The position numbers were made by a program, and so were the translations under genes. A stretch of DNA of 64,000 nt from a virus, in the IMG/VR virus record IMGVR_UViG_3300030389_003255, positions 1-64,000 of that record. The stretch is one strand, 5' to 3'. Within the stretch, counting starts at the first letter, position 1; each line of letters opens with the position of its first letter. The notes under the pieces are model-generated. The model worked only from the letters and a program-made list of their open reading frames with translations, did not search any database and had not been told where the DNA came from. Below, piece after piece: positions 1 through 4,312 of the stretch.

Positions 1-1
1 A

Positions 2-547
2 ATATTAGTAATTGGAGCAGGTGGTATTGGGAGTTTCTTGATACCGCTTTTAGACAAAGTAGAATTGTATGACATAACGGTAGCAGACCCCGATAAGGTA
101 GAAACAAAGAATCTACCATATCAAAATTTTCAAGTAACAGATGTTGGAAATAATAAGGCATTAGTAATGAAAGACCATTATTCATTAACCAAAGCCATAA
201 TATATCCTATTCTAACTGAAAAACAAATGCAAGGATATGATTTGGTTATTTGTTGTGTAGATAATTTAGGCCTTAGAAGAACAATGTATAACACAAAGAT
301 TAAGTGGTTAGACTTGCGGGCGCAAGGCAGGAATGCCGCACTTGTGAGCCATAAAGCCGACATTAAGATGTATGAAAGTTTATTGGCAGGTAAAGACGGG
401 TCATTCTCTTGTCAAGGAGATTCTTGGGATGGGAGTAACAAAGGAGTTCATTTTATGCAAGTTGCTATTGCGGGAATGGGCGCACAATGGATTCAAAGAT
501 ACTTCAATGATGAAGAAGTATGTGACTTCAAGGTGGTGAATGTATGA
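2..547 (+). CDS. ThiF/MoeB/E1-like ubiquitin-activating enzyme family protein (5' end truncated by window edge)
   Basis: Frame is open from position 2 and reads ILVIGAGGIGS (Rossmann GxGGxG), upstream of the tracked start. Also has D-x-D-x-V-E-x-x-N-L (ADPDKVETKNL), DLVICCVDN..R and a candidate catalytic Cys (FSCQ). Confidence 0.85.
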   Translation: MLVIGAGGIGSFLIPLLDKVELYDITVADPDKVETKNLPYQNFQVTDVGNNKALVMKDHYSLTKAIIYPILTEKQMQGYDLVICCVDNLGLRRTMYNTKIKWLDLRAQGRNAALVSHKADIKMYESLLAGKDGSFSCQGDSWDGSNKGVHFMQVAIAGMGAQWIQRYFNDEEVCDFKVVNV

Positions 548-1065
548 GTAAAATGAAAGATAGATATTTCGATGAAATAAATAATGATGATGATGGATAT
601 GAAAAATATATGGAGGAACTAAGTGAGAAGAGGTTTTTGGCTGAGAGGCATATCATAGATAATTATGACAAAACAAAAAATATCAAAGATTTGTTTGAAC
701 CTATTTGGCATGCTTCCACTACAATTCTACCTCATTTAGAAGTTCAAGTTGTTATTGATGCTAACAGGGATATCCATGTCTCAACCGGAACAGCAGGATA
801 TGTAGACTTTCAAATAAATCCTGTTGGTATGAAACTACCTGTCGAATGTTGGATTCATACTCATCCTTTCGGTGTTGCTTATTTTAGTGGAACGGATATA
901 GGAACTGTTAGAGTTTGGCAACCCATTATGAAAGAAGCCTATGTATTAGGCGGAGTAGAACATTATGGCCATTGGACTCAAGATAGACCTAATGCACTAG
1001 ATATTTTTCATGACAATGAATATGAAGAAACACAAGTTTGGAATAGAAGAGGTGAAGAAGAATGA
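544..1065 (+). CDS. JAB/MPN (JAMM) metalloprotease, prokaryotic deubiquitinase-like
   Basis: JAMM motif E...WIHTHPFGVAYFSGTD (HxH-x7-S-x2-D); overlaps the E1-like gene stop. Confidence 0.85.
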   Translation: MSKMKDRYFDEINNDDDGYEKYMEELSEKRFLAERHIIDNYDKTKNIKDLFEPIWHASTTILPHLEVQVVIDANRDIHVSTGTAGYVDFQINPVGMKLPVECWIHTHPFGVAYFSGTDIGTVRVWQPIMKEAYVLGGVEHYGHWTQDRPNALDIFHDNEYEETQVWNRRGEEE

Positions 1066-1292
1066 AAGCATATGGAGATTGGGTTGTTCTGGAAAGAACA
1101 ACAAAGAAACTAGCAAGTGGATTAATGATTGATGCAGGTAATGTTGGATTAGTAGTAGATTCAGCAGATAAGAAAATCATAGGAAAGCGTGTTTTGTTTT
1201 CACAAAAGCATGAACAACATACCTATGGTGATTATTTCATGGTTCACAAAAATTCAGTAATGGCAATAATACAGGAAAAGGATGACGAATGA
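1062..1292 (+). CDS. groES: GroES-like co-chaperonin
   Basis: 76 aa with MKAYGDWVVLE, mobile-loop-like KLASGLMI, and GKRVLF...VMAII; directly upstream of groEL. Confidence 0.75.
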   Translation: MKAYGDWVVLERTTKKLASGLMIDAGNVGLVVDSADKKIIGKRVLFSQKHEQHTYGDYFMVHKNSVMAIIQEKDDE

Positions 1293-2818
1293 TAATTAAA
1301 GGAACAGAAGTAAAAGAAAAACTATTGAAAGGAATAGACATAGTAGCAGAAACAGTAAAGCCTACACTTGGCCCACAAGCAAAAACAGTTATTCTTCAGG
1401 GCAAACCTCCTGTAATAATTAATGATGGAGTTACTATTACTAAATACATTAGTCACGATGACCCCTATATCAATATGGGAATTCAACTAGTTCAAAACTT
1501 AGCAAGTCAAGCACAAGATGAATCCGGTGATGGAACAACAACCGCTTGTGTTTTGGCTCAAGCAATATGTCATAAAATGCTAGAAGCAGATGTAAAGGAT
1601 GTTCACTCCTTCAACAAAACACTTAATGAACTTAGAGATACTATTGTTAGGAATTTAATGCACAGTGCCAAAGAAGTAAAAGATACAGATGTTTTAGATG
1701 TAGCCACAATAGCCGCTAATAATGATAGTGAAATGGGTTCATTGATTAATGAAGCAGTGGGTATGGTTGGAAGAAGCGGAATAATAACAGTAGAAGAATC
1801 TAATTCTTACAAAACGGAATTAGTCCTACGAGAAGGACTGGAAATCAATGAGGGATATCTAAGTCATCTAATGTGTAATACAGATGGTGGAAAGGTGGTG
1901 TATGAGAATCCTATCATCTTCCTATCTAATTTATCTTTTAATGCCTTCAAAGACCTAATACCTATGCTTGAGTATGCTAGTCAATCGGGTAGACCCCTAC
2001 TAATTTTATGTAAAGGTCTAGATAGTTCTGCCATGAATAATCTACTTATGAATATAATAAATAATACAGTTCAATGTTCAGCAATACTAGCACCTAACTT
2101 TGGTGATGAGCAATTGGATGAACTTCTAGACTTACAAACAGTGGTCGGAGGAAAGGTGTTTGCTTCAGAAGTAAAAGACGACCCTACTATATTTGTTGAT
2201 GAGTCCTTTGGAAGTTGTGAACGGGTAGTTATAACAAAAGAAAAGACCACCTTTATCGGAACTAGCGGGACAGAAGAAGCAGTAGAAAATAGAATACAGG
2301 AACTAGCGAAAACTCTAGAGGAAATAAAGGGACATAGAGCCGCTAGACTAAAGAGCAGAATTGCTAGACTTAAGGGAGGTATTGCTACCATTAAGGTTGG
2401 TGCATCTTCAACTATAGAAATGAGAGAAAAGAAAGAAAGATTAGACGATGCTCTTAATGCTACTAAAGCCGCTTTAGAAGAGGGAATTGTAGTTGGTGGA
2501 GGACTAACTTTAATTCAGGCTTGCGATACCATACCTTCTAAATATAATTGGTTCAAAGAGGCGTTACAAGCACCTTACTTAACTCTATTACAAAATAGCG
2601 GAAGAGACGACTTGATGGCTATAATTAAGGATAAGCATGTTAGAAAGGATATCGCCAAAGGTAATGGATTTAATGCCCTAACTAATAAAATAGAGAATCT
2701 ATCAAAAGCGGGTGTATTTGACCCAGTGAAAGTAACTAAGAGTAGTTTCTTAGCGGCTATGTCTATTGCTCAATTATTCTTTTCTACTGATGTAGCGGTT
2801 TTGTTACCGGAGGAATAA
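1289..2818 (+). CDS. groEL: Group I chaperonin GroEL
   Basis: TLGP, NDGVTI, GDGTTTA, APNFGD, RIARLKGGIA, DDALNATKAALEEGIVVGGG and DPVKV motifs. Confidence 0.97.
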   Translation: MIIKGTEVKEKLLKGIDIVAETVKPTLGPQAKTVILQGKPPVIINDGVTITKYISHDDPYINMGIQLVQNLASQAQDESGDGTTTACVLAQAICHKMLEADVKDVHSFNKTLNELRDTIVRNLMHSAKEVKDTDVLDVATIAANNDSEMGSLINEAVGMVGRSGIITVEESNSYKTELVLREGLEINEGYLSHLMCNTDGGKVVYENPIIFLSNLSFNAFKDLIPMLEYASQSGRPLLILCKGLDSSAMNNLLMNIINNTVQCSAILAPNFGDEQLDELLDLQTVVGGKVFASEVKDDPTIFVDESFGSCERVVITKEKTTFIGTSGTEEAVENRIQELAKTLEEIKGHRAARLKSRIARLKGGIATIKVGASSTIEMREKKERLDDALNATKAALEEGIVVGGGLTLIQACDTIPSKYNWFKEALQAPYLTLLQNSGRDDLMAIIKDKHVRKDIAKGNGFNALTNKIENLSKAGVFDPVKVTKSSFLAAMSIAQLFFSTDVAVLLPEE

Positions 2819-2820
2819 AT

Positions 2821-3018
2821 ATGGGATATAGAAAAATGAAAGATTTAGCCTGTTTTGTTGCTGTCAATCTCTATGATTGGGATAAGCAAGACATAGAAAA
2901 TATGGTGCAACAAGTAGGTTGTATTGAAACCGTAGTTGATTTTCTTACAGCGTATGAACACAGATTCGGCCTTGACTTGAAAGATAAAATCGAATGGGCT
3001 TTGCTAGCGGAGGAATAG
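2821..3018 (+). CDS. hypothetical protein
   Basis: 65 aa ORF with GGAGG RBS, in operon. Confidence 0.55.
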   Translation: MGYRKMKDLACFVAVNLYDWDKQDIENMVQQVGCIETVVDFLTAYEHRFGLDLKDKIEWALLAEE

Positions 3019-3972: not shown

Positions 3973-4312
3973 TAAATTATATTTAATATGCAATAACAAT
4001 AAGAAATTTGACAACTGGACTCTAAAGTTCAAGAAGAAATTAACTGGTTTAGCCTTAGACCACTTCAATCAAGGTTGGGTTGATGTAAAACAAGGTAATT
4101 ATTTAGCAAGGGCAATTTTCGTGTGCTACTGGGAAATTTATGCTAATGGTAATTTAGCAAAAGTAAGTCCTGCTATTACTCAAGCCACCTTAGTTCATTT
4201 AATGCACAGATTTCTAGAACAAGAAAGATTTGAAGAAGTCGAATTAATCCAACATATGATGACTAACTTCCTGAGACTATTGACTGTAGTAGAACAGGGG
4301 GAAGAAGAGTGA
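3953..4312 (+). CDS. hypothetical protein
   Basis: 119 aa ORF overlapping both neighbours. Confidence 0.6.
   Translation: MRTMDFNKLYLICNNNKKFDNWTLKFKKKLTGLALDHFNQGWVDVKQGNYLARAIFVCYWEIYANGNLAKVSPAITQATLVHLMHRFLEQERFEEVELIQHMMTNFLRLLTVVEQGEEE

Follow-up and report, generated by a model that had tools for sequence, protein, structure and literature searches.

A magrovirus gene set for a putative ubiquitin-like conjugation system and its counterpart in Poseidoniales

The stretch of DNA analysed here (the window) is the first 64,000 nucleotides (64 kb) of the 92,771-bp IMG/VR virus record IMGVR_UViG_3300030389_003255. It opens with two adjoining plus-strand genes, one for a small E1-like adenylating enzyme of the ThiF fold (mini-E1) and the other for a JAMM/MPN+ metalloprotease (JAB). 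An initial annotation, made from the sequence alone, read this pair at positions 2-1065 as part of a ubiquitin-like conjugation module, and suggested that the genes of a ubiquitin-like protein (Ubl) and of an E2 enzyme may lie just upstream. The record carries the genes typical of a magrovirus (a TFIIB-like factor, GroES/GroEL and an ATP-dependent DNA ligase), its GC content is about 34% and its length falls in the 90-100 kb size class; it is a magrovirus. The magroviruses (order Magrovirales) have tails and are ascribed to archaea of Marine Group II, today called Poseidoniales (PMC5434244, PMC10768690). Here we describe the E1 and JAB genes, a Ubl gene found upstream of them and the related genes of the host order, and weigh what this gene set may do.

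The reading frame of the E1 is open at the start of the window. The record is rated complete by CheckV, and its last 284 bases are 86% identical to bases 1-281. This overlap looks like two co-occurring strain variants fused by the assembler rather than a true terminal repeat. The assembly joins itself via the two variants, which points to a circularly permuted or terminally redundant genome. Because the contig ends overlap, the DNA that precedes the window is found at the record's far end. Four codons of the E1 (MKRK) lie there, outside the window, at record positions 92477-92488. The gene starts at 92477, seven bases 3' of a GGAGG site, and reads MKRK and then ILVIGAGGIGS, so that the whole protein is about 185 amino acids (aa) long. 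The amino acid differences between the two overlapping ends are concentrated in one variable stretch of the E1 (residues ~45-68), and the motifs are identical. The Ubl, E1 and JAB genes all lie inside one co-directional early/replication block of plus-strand genes, which extends from about 84.9 kb, across the contig end, to about 22 kb.

The E1 matches the Pfam ThiF family (PF00899) at 54.4 bits (cut-off 28.1, E 1.3e-14), which passes the threshold of the superfamily. Among 15 virus homologues, and also in an alignment of virus and host sequences, the invariant residues are the GAGGIGS loop, D29xD31, N37, Q41, D87-N88, R92 and Cys137. In profile alignments the loop falls on the ATP loop in UBA5, UBA1 and MoeB, and the motif around Asp87 on the CVDNFEAR of UBA5; by its position, the Asp87 region would correspond to the Mg/ATP-binding aspartate of E1-like enzymes. 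Cys137 lies 50 residues past Asp87 in an S-C-Q motif and is the sole cysteine invariant across the virus and host E1s, which makes it a candidate for the thioester cysteine. In marine metagenomes there are 683 homologues of this E1, 184-192 aa in length, and 280 homologues of the JAB, and many of these homologues are on contigs of about 90-99 kb. With these numbers of homologues, the pairing of E1 and JAB is not due to chance.

The E1 is less easily placed within the ThiF superfamily. It is under every NCBIfam cut-off (ThiF, MoeB, MoeZ, TcdA, UbaA and PRTRC ThiF), with a best score of 40.5 bits for ThiF (cut-off 275), 23.9 for UbaA (450) and 14.8 for TcdA (304). A profile made from host and virus E1s found UBA5 at 1.9e-11, MoeB at 2e-9, ThiF at 4e-8 and TcdA at 3e-7, and placed UBA5, UBA1 and UBA3 no lower than MoeB, ThiF and TcdA, by small gaps and with only the first ~100 residues aligned. 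The initial annotation had allowed for an E1 from the sulfur-transfer or TcdA clades; the scores under all cut-offs and the at least equally high placing of the protein-conjugating E1s UBA5, UBA1 and UBA3 do not put it there. Matches to the PADLOC models were limited to the Rossmann part of E1-E2 proteins, with Cap2 among the top sequence matches. A search of the 'phages' collection gave distant matches only (26-40% identity), in crAss-like Bacteroides, Moraxella, Vibrio and Bacillus phages; no magrovirus record was among these E1 matches, and the JAB had no match in this collection. The ThiF-like sequences of Bacteroides phage DAC15 (MT074136), of DAC17 and of the Moraxella phages KR093641 and KR093646 cover 92-98% of the E1 at ~26-27% identity, and that of crAss001 (MH675552) covers 57%. 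Some of these crAss-like and Moraxella phage sequences are annotated as 'thiamine biosynthesis protein'.

The JAB gene begins in an ATGA overlap with the E1 gene, and further ATGA overlaps chain this pair to a GroES-like gene and a GroEL gene. The JAMM motif of the 173-aa protein is complete (E66 ... H105-T-H107-x7-S115-x2-D118) and all its residues are invariant in 15 homologues of 52-68% identity. With the ThiF match and the ATGA overlap, this bears out the gene pair of the initial annotation. At the level of profiles the ThiF half of the pair stood, above threshold, while the JAB half did not: its match to Pfam Prok-JAB is weak (E 0.0086) and, at 16.4 bits, under the cut-off of 25, and the protein has no match in the NCBIfam, PHROG or PADLOC models. 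The AlphaFold model (predicted local distance difference test score, pLDDT, 84) has the MPN fold. In a Foldseek search with this model AF2198, PfJAMM1 and a Caldiarchaeum Rpn11 homologue came first, followed by Rpn11, CSN5 and AMSH. The top matches (AF2198, PfJAMM1 and Rpn11-like proteins) had probabilities of 0.98-1.0 and E values of ~7e-3, and over these matches together the E values are modest, ~7e-3 to 1e-1; PfJAMM1, the SAMP2 deconjugase, had a TM score of 0.58 by target and a probability of 1.0.

For comparison, 80 related IMG/VR loci were gathered by E1 profile and then searched by tblastn. A further gene, encoding a protein of 100-438 aa, lies between E1 and JAB in 66 related loci (among L006-L083). 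It is missing, and E1 adjoins JAB, in the genome described here and in its closest relatives, L004, L005 and L007. We considered this gene as a possible E2 and rejected it, as by eye its N-terminus resembles a Myb/SANT-like DNA-binding protein.

The beta-grasp protein ending in Gly-Gly that the initial annotation predicted was found 3.9 kb upstream of E1, as a 68-aa open reading frame (ORF) on the E1 strand. This ORF is present in all 62 loci whose upstream DNA spans 4.9 kb or more, always on the E1 strand and 2.5-7.2 kb upstream. In these 62 contigs (48 distinct sequences) the protein closes with AIVGG (once with AVVGG), after which come no, one or two variable residues, for example NL, SL, SE, HC, SY, CY, QQ or Q. 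An invariant Gly-Gly with a short variable tail is characteristic of a ubiquitin-like precursor that needs trimming by a peptidase. On every informative virus contig Ubl, E1 and JAB occur together.

The AlphaFold model of the Ubl, made with 28 sequences, has a pLDDT of 88.8 and a beta-beta-alpha-beta-beta-alpha-beta order, with a disordered tail from residue 66. The top 50 PDB matches in Foldseek are all ubiquitin, NEDD8, ISG15 or SUMO (E from 2.6e-3, probability up to 0.99). In VIA-align, an all-against-all structural search, MoaD came first (Z 5.3, 27% identity), followed by the Ubl of a bacterial E1-E2-Ubl complex (8tyz), human MOCS2A and ISG15 (Z 5.1-5.3), and ThiS, CysO, TtuB and SAMP1 are also in the list. 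Such modest scores, which are usual for 66 residues, settle the predicted fold as beta-grasp but do not assign a subfamily. The viral Ubl belongs to no Pfam (ThiS, MoaD, ubiquitin, Prok_Ub), NCBIfam or PHROG family, and ten distant members of its family likewise had no match to ThiS, MoaD, ubiquitin or Prok_Ub. A weak Pfam match to the Lon-protease inhibitor PinA (E 6.4e-4, under the cut-off) was judged a less likely identity than beta-grasp. The viral Ubl is strongly acidic and has three invariant histidines, H12 in T-G-H-T and H29 and H32 in H-P-T-H-W, and the G-H-T/S turn is conserved throughout the wider family; a metal or partner-binding site at these histidines is possible. Just upstream of the Ubl, in 47 of the 80 loci, there is a gene for a 113-aa protein with a C-x2-C ... 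C-x2-C pattern and a weak DnaJ zinc-finger-like match (E 0.08).

Table 1. Positions of the features described in the text. Window positions are those of the 64,000-nucleotide stretch, record positions those of the 92,771-bp record; L numbers are our own handles for loci and contigs.
Feature	Position	Strand	Remarks
Mini-E1 (ThiF-fold adenylating enzyme)	window 2..547	+	Pfam ThiF match, homologues; ~185 aa in full
Nucleotide-binding loop GAGGIGS of E1	window 14..34	+	invariant in virus and host
VDN..R motif of E1 (Asp87, Asn88, Arg92)	window 260..277	+	invariant
Cys137 of E1 (S-C-Q motif), candidate thioester cysteine	window 410..412	+	invariant in virus and host
JAMM/MPN+ metalloprotease, 173 aa	window 544..1065	+	motif, AlphaFold model; N-terminal three-helix extension (residues 4-61)
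JAMM catalytic motif	window 739..897	+	Glu66 739-741, His105 856-858, His107 862-864, Ser115 886-888, Asp118 895-897
Beta-grasp Ubl precursor, 68 aa	record 88583-88789 (L003 8584-8790)	E1 strand	ends ..VNAIVGGNL
413-aa protein	record 89550-90791		between Ubl and E1; present in 69/80 related loci
Overlapping contig ends	window 1-281 = record 92488-92771 (L002; L003 12489-12772)		sequence match
GroES-like gene, 76 aa	window 1062..1292	+	ATGA overlap with JAB; 45/80 related loci (tblastn)
GroEL-type chaperonin	window 1289..2818	+	Pfam Cpn60_TCP1 2.7e-46; downstream of JAB in 77/80 related loci
113-aa protein	record 87896-88237 (L003 7897-8238)		just upstream of Ubl
Host upstream genes (~1300 aa, zinc-ribbon)	L091 2865-6938; L095 1834-5733; L117 249-4115		

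The Ubl profile was also searched against 1.84 billion representative proteins, and 134 relatives were found. These include double and triple tandem proteins in which each repeat ends in GG (AG in a few). In two proteins, P0252 and P0284, one or two Ubl domains are directly followed by an E1 domain (Pfam ThiF ~1e-17, positions 21-223 of the 238 of the profile covered). The alignment of this E1 domain with the viral E1 is full-length, at 31-38% identity, and the two have every invariant residue in common, including the cysteine of S-C-Q. As host proteins fuse them directly, the Ubl family and the E1 family are tied together. Other fusions carry one of two kinds of C-terminal domain, which we label X and Y. 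NCBI names for the cluster members of the Ubl relatives are those of Candidatus Poseidoniales metagenome-assembled genomes (MAGs), and the contigs are up to 2 Mb long, which indicates that the relatives are host genes. The upstream Ubl and the host Ubl-E1 fusions lend support to the conjugation function proposed by the initial annotation, a function that is deduced from sequence and models.

In a scan of one genome per species we found 40 host loci, almost all from Poseidoniales, with the gene order Ubl, mini-E1, JAB, in which the Ubl may stand free, form tandems or be joined to E1 or X/Y. The JAB gene is directly downstream of E1 in about 35 of them, its product is 38-42% identical to the viral JAB over residues 66-136, and the flanking genes are ordinary chromosomal genes. 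The mini-E1 is present in 87 of 151 sampled Poseidoniales genomes, mostly as a single copy; many of the genomes without it are smaller assemblies, and the incompleteness of MAGs limits what this count says about prevalence. The host set has the look of a system that runs through the whole lineage and not of a patchy island, and its operon is so far annotated as hypothetical proteins only. The initial annotation had looked to the SAMP/UbaA system for the archaeal counterpart; the host genes belong instead to a separate system that is specific to Poseidoniales. In an E1 tree built with no outgroup, 31 viral rows, including three magrovirus-like contigs binned into bacterial MAGs, are split from 34 host rows by one very long branch with a support of 100/100. 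The virus and host copies of the E1 are therefore old and separate. Scans of the viral contigs with the host proteins P0284 and P0251 and with alignment A4 gave no match. The Poseidoniaceae operon is also flanked by genes for a ~1300-aa protein and one or two ~440-aa zinc-ribbon proteins upstream and for a conserved ~77-aa protein downstream, and these proteins may belong to the same system.

The E2 half of the upstream prediction fared differently from the Ubl half: known models recognised no E2, and what we found is a candidate with a cysteine motif. The candidate is the 413-aa protein encoded between Ubl and E1. Only one of its cysteines is invariant, that in W-x-G-P-I-C-I-D-N ... L-G-D-Q ... 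A-L-L-N-D ... S-T-I-K/R. The cysteine motif, in the virus C-I-D-x8-10-P-L-G-D-Q..L-N-D, is also found in three host groups, namely the ~440-aa zinc-ribbon proteins, whose genes immediately precede that of the Ubl, the X domain and the Y domain. What they have in common is C-I-[DEHQ], 6-10 residues, P-[LIM]-G-D (P-S-[IL]-D in X) and a helix ending in N-D. The 413-aa protein matches a host zinc-ribbon protein in blastp (E 3e-5), which is thin statistical support. By eye, the cysteine region resembles the E2 active site H-P-N..G-x-I-C-L-D-I-L..W-S-P-A..L-L..P-N, and the X domain has V-H-P-K-D 12 residues ahead of the cysteine, but none of the tools applied bore out a UBC fold. A comparison of the Ubl profile with the N-terminus of the 413-aa protein showed no similarity. 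On these motifs, the odds that the 413-aa protein acts as an E2 would be roughly even, the alternative being an E2-independent transfer of the kind seen in sampylation.

What was observed are the genes with their motifs, the predicted folds, the conservation, the fusions and the operon of the host; from these we infer catalytic steps, targets and a purpose as follows. The Ubl would be made as a 68-aa beta-grasp precursor ending in AIVGG-NL. The JAMM protease most likely trims the 0-2 residues after Gly-Gly, in hosts would cut the poly-Ubl and Ubl-fusion precursors, and may also strip the tag from its targets. The 185-aa mini-E1 would bind ATP, adenylate the exposed C-terminal glycine and probably load the Ubl onto Cys137, from which the Ubl would pass to lysines of the target, either directly, as in archaeal sampylation, or via the 413-aa cysteine protein. 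The purpose may be to alter the stability of host or viral proteins alongside the co-transcribed GroES/GroEL. We consider it probable, at about 60%, that Ubl, E1 and JAB form a divergent protein-conjugation system common to the virus and its Poseidoniales hosts. A more ambitious proposal is that of a complete, lineage-specific ubiquitination-like pathway common to Poseidoniales and magroviruses, with parts that escape the present family models: a 'TGHT..GG' Ubl (from poly-Ubl or fusion precursors), a minimal E1 of 185-210 aa, the cysteine enzyme as E2 and the JAMM protease. The virus would operate a copy of this pathway for itself, co-transcribed with GroES/GroEL, and so re-programme protein fate. 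This we put forward tentatively, at odds that are appreciable but short of even.

Several points weigh against a conjugation system. The alignments of the E1 profile to known E1s end near residue 100, short of Cys137; the viral E1 is without the C-terminal half of known E1s, and Cys137 is a candidate for its role only. The fold matches of JAB and Ubl are modest (E ~3e-3 to 7e-3, Z ~5), and the Ubl is equally close to MoaD, a sulfur carrier, and to ubiquitin. As to gene order, 2.5-7 kb lie between the Ubl gene and E1 in the viruses, and the Myb-like gene parts E1 from JAB in most relatives. Neither the virus nor four host genomes had a match to UQ_con or to Prok-E2_A, B, D or E. The case for the 413-aa protein as E2-like is one of motif: the protein compares with Y at an hhalign probability of 6.5% (E 0.0056), and searches with it and with the host Y family in Pfam, PHROGs, PDB profiles and the ESM Atlas gave nothing usable.

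The closeness of the Ubl to MoaD raises the possibility of a sulfur carrier, that is, a ThiS/MoaD-type Ubl whose C-terminal glycine the E1 adenylates and which is made into a thiocarboxylate for a thio-cofactor, cysteine or a thiolated tRNA base, with a JAMM protease that only matures the carrier, as QbsD does QbsE, or frees the product, as Mec+ does with CysO. ThiS, CysO and TtuB appear beside MoaD (Z 5.3, 27% identity) among the structural matches, the top NCBIfam matches of the E1, all sub-threshold, are ThiF models, and a GG followed by two removable residues is the QbsE pattern. The enzymes that might be expected to go with such a carrier (rhodanese, the PP-loop ATPase ATP_bind_3, MoaE and ThiG) were not found in the complete virus record, in a search whose controls respond in 12-14 of 14 genomes, although host enzymes could serve. 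Moreover, a rhodanese domain is missing from the E1, which scores far under the cut-offs of ThiF, MoeB, MoeZ, TcdA and UbaA, a conserved invariant-cysteine protein accompanies the set, and the triple tandem arrays and N-terminal Ubl fusions of the host are the pattern of a polyubiquitin or modifier and not that of a carrier. We therefore regard a sulfur carrier as unlikely. Still more improbable, and in our view barely credible, is that the genes are unrelated neighbours, with the E1 engaged in, for example, nucleotide-activating chemistry, the JAB a general protease or a RadC-like protein and the GG protein unconnected with either. The Myb/SANT-like gene between E1 and JAB in 66 loci, a Ubl that is kilobases away and the cytidine deaminase and RadC folds far down among the fold matches of the JAB would all suit unrelated genes. 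They would leave unaccounted for the Ubl-E1 fusions, the JAB genes immediately downstream of E1 in about 35 host loci, the presence of all three genes on every informative virus contig and the invariance of the JAMM motif.

The genes might also work together and yet serve to interfere with the host. The host operon would then be a working system, possibly antiviral in the manner of the bacterial Bil, CBASS and Bub pathways, and the viral copies decoys or erasers, with JAB stripping the host Ubl off viral proteins and with Ubl and E1 competing with or diverting their host counterparts. Homologous Ubl, E1 and JAB in host and virus fit this proposal, as does the one very long, fully supported branch between their E1s, which would result from a long separate evolution, and bacterial Ubl-E1-E2-JAB operons are reported to act in immunity against phages (PMC11601596). 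On the other hand, a host gene that is this widespread (87 of 151 incomplete genomes, mostly in single copy) resembles a housekeeping gene more than a patchy defence island, and an eraser needs JAB alone, whereas all informative magrovirus contigs retain Ubl, E1 and JAB. Interference of this kind thus seems fairly unlikely to us, even if the present evidence does not separate tagging for the virus from untagging or competing. A conjugation system common to virus and host is the reading that we prefer.

Some features of the wider record and of related contigs may be added. The 76-aa GroES-like protein downstream of JAB has no Pfam or NCBIfam match. GroES is listed for the magrovirus family in the 2023 ICTV profile (PMC10768690), whereas Philosof et al. 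2017 assumed that it is missing in magroviruses. Of the 123 ORFs in the whole record, 10 have Glu-Glu as their last two residues and another four have Asp-Glu (for example at window positions 1050-1065, 1277-1292, 2804-2818, 3004-3018 and 4298-4312), and in 29 of the 123 the stop codon is included in an ATGA overlap with the next start. The acidic protein tails probably reflect purine-rich ribosome-binding sequences inside the upstream gene. Three contigs from MAGs labelled Maricaulis and Altibacter (L118, L120 and L122) carry the magrovirus-type 413-aa protein, TFB, an E1 at 50-57% identity, JAB and GroEL, and a contig from a MAG labelled Gammaproteobacteria (L108) carries a host-type E1. Faulty binning is the most likely cause of the presence of these magrovirus-type and host-type genes in bacterial MAGs, and the magrovirus group to which L118, L120 and L122 belong is a more distant one.

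In prokaryotes, ubiquitin-like tagging is known at present from haloarchaeal sampylation, from a few archaeal ubiquitin operons and from bacterial antiphage systems. To our knowledge, this is the first tailed archaeal virus seen with Ubl, E1 and JAMM protease together. What is new is the carrier, a tailed archaeal virus, the widespread and unannotated counterpart in Poseidoniales, and the unusually small E1. ThiF, JAB and ubiquitin are unmentioned in the text of the magrovirus and archaeal-virus articles PMC5434244, PMC5332604, PMC10160649, PMC11706807, PMC10768690 and PMC8651126, though a bare annotation may exist elsewhere, and a full-text literature search for Poseidoniales and ubiquitin gave nothing relevant. 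The host order, Marine Group II, is uncultured and among the most abundant archaea of the ocean, and it has a matching operon that includes polyubiquitin-like precursors. If the complete pathway proposed above exists, the virus would redirect the fate of proteins in a microbe that ranks with the most abundant of the surface ocean. The very small E1 could define a minimal activating enzyme, and as the proteins are small and soluble-looking, their study in vitro is feasible without culturing either host or virus.

Of the known systems, archaeal sampylation (SAMP1-3, UbaA and HvJAMM1 in Haloferax volcanii; PfJAMM1 and SAMP2 in Pyrococcus) has in common with the present one a small beta-grasp modifier with a C-terminal Gly-Gly, one ThiF-type E1 and a JAMM protease, and an E2 or E3 is not recognisable in either. 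The best fold matches of the viral JAB include PfJAMM1, and those listed for the viral Ubl include SAMP1. The viral E1, however, scores 23.9 bits with the UbaA model (cut-off 450), has 185 aa against ~270 and lacks the CxxC zinc motifs, the viral Ubl has no ThiS/MoaD Pfam match, and the genes are borne by a virus; in addition there are poly-Ubl proteins and Ubl-E1 fusions in the host, and an extra protein with an invariant cysteine. In the systems of QbsE/QbsC/QbsD (Pseudomonas) and CysO/MoeZ/Mec+ (Mycobacterium), too, a GG is followed by a short removable tail and a JAMM protease is encoded together with an E1-like adenylase, and CysO is in the Ubl fold list. E1s of the QbsC/MoeZ type have rhodanese domains and are found beside biosynthetic enzymes. 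The virus, by contrast, has neither rhodanese nor the biosynthetic enzymes for which it was tested.

Two further comparisons concern viruses. In CBASS, Cap2 (an E1-E2 fusion) and Cap3 (a JAB) likewise combine an E1 adenylation domain with a JAB deconjugase in a setting of virus-host conflict. What Cap2 conjugates, however, is the cGAS-like enzyme itself; a separate Ubl is absent and the E2 is fused to the E1, and none of this is true here. The phages lambda and T1 provide an earlier case of a tailed-virus Ubl, TAPI, which has a conserved C-terminal glycine and adjoins a JAB peptidase, TAPK (JAB + NlpC). These are tail-module genes with no E1 among them, and the Ubl is not thought to be conjugated, whereas the genes described here lie in an early/replication block and include an E1.

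Bacterial E1-E2-JAB-Ubl operons have in later work been studied as Bil or type II ubiquitination-like defence systems (PDB 8tyz/8tyx). Iyer, Burroughs and Aravind were the first to describe such bacterial operons, in 2006; in these, genes for an E1-like protein and a JAB stand together with a Ubl family that was new, and there are proteins of two or three tandem Ubl repeats, a Ubl fused to the N-terminus of ThiF and an accompanying zinc-finger protein (PMC1779556). The same operon parts and fusions are found here, and the Ubl of 8tyz is the second-best VIA match of the viral Ubl. The differences are that there is no detectable UBC-type E2, that the E1 is much smaller, with PADLOC matches that cover the Rossmann part of E1-E2 proteins only, and that the lineage is one of archaea and archaeal viruses. 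The set as a whole has the features by which the superfamilies are defined (the ThiF domain, the JAMM motif and a beta-grasp with GG) and falls outside every named subfamily against which it was run. Its function is most likely akin to that of archaeal sampylation or of the bacterial E1-(E2)-JAB-Ubl operons.

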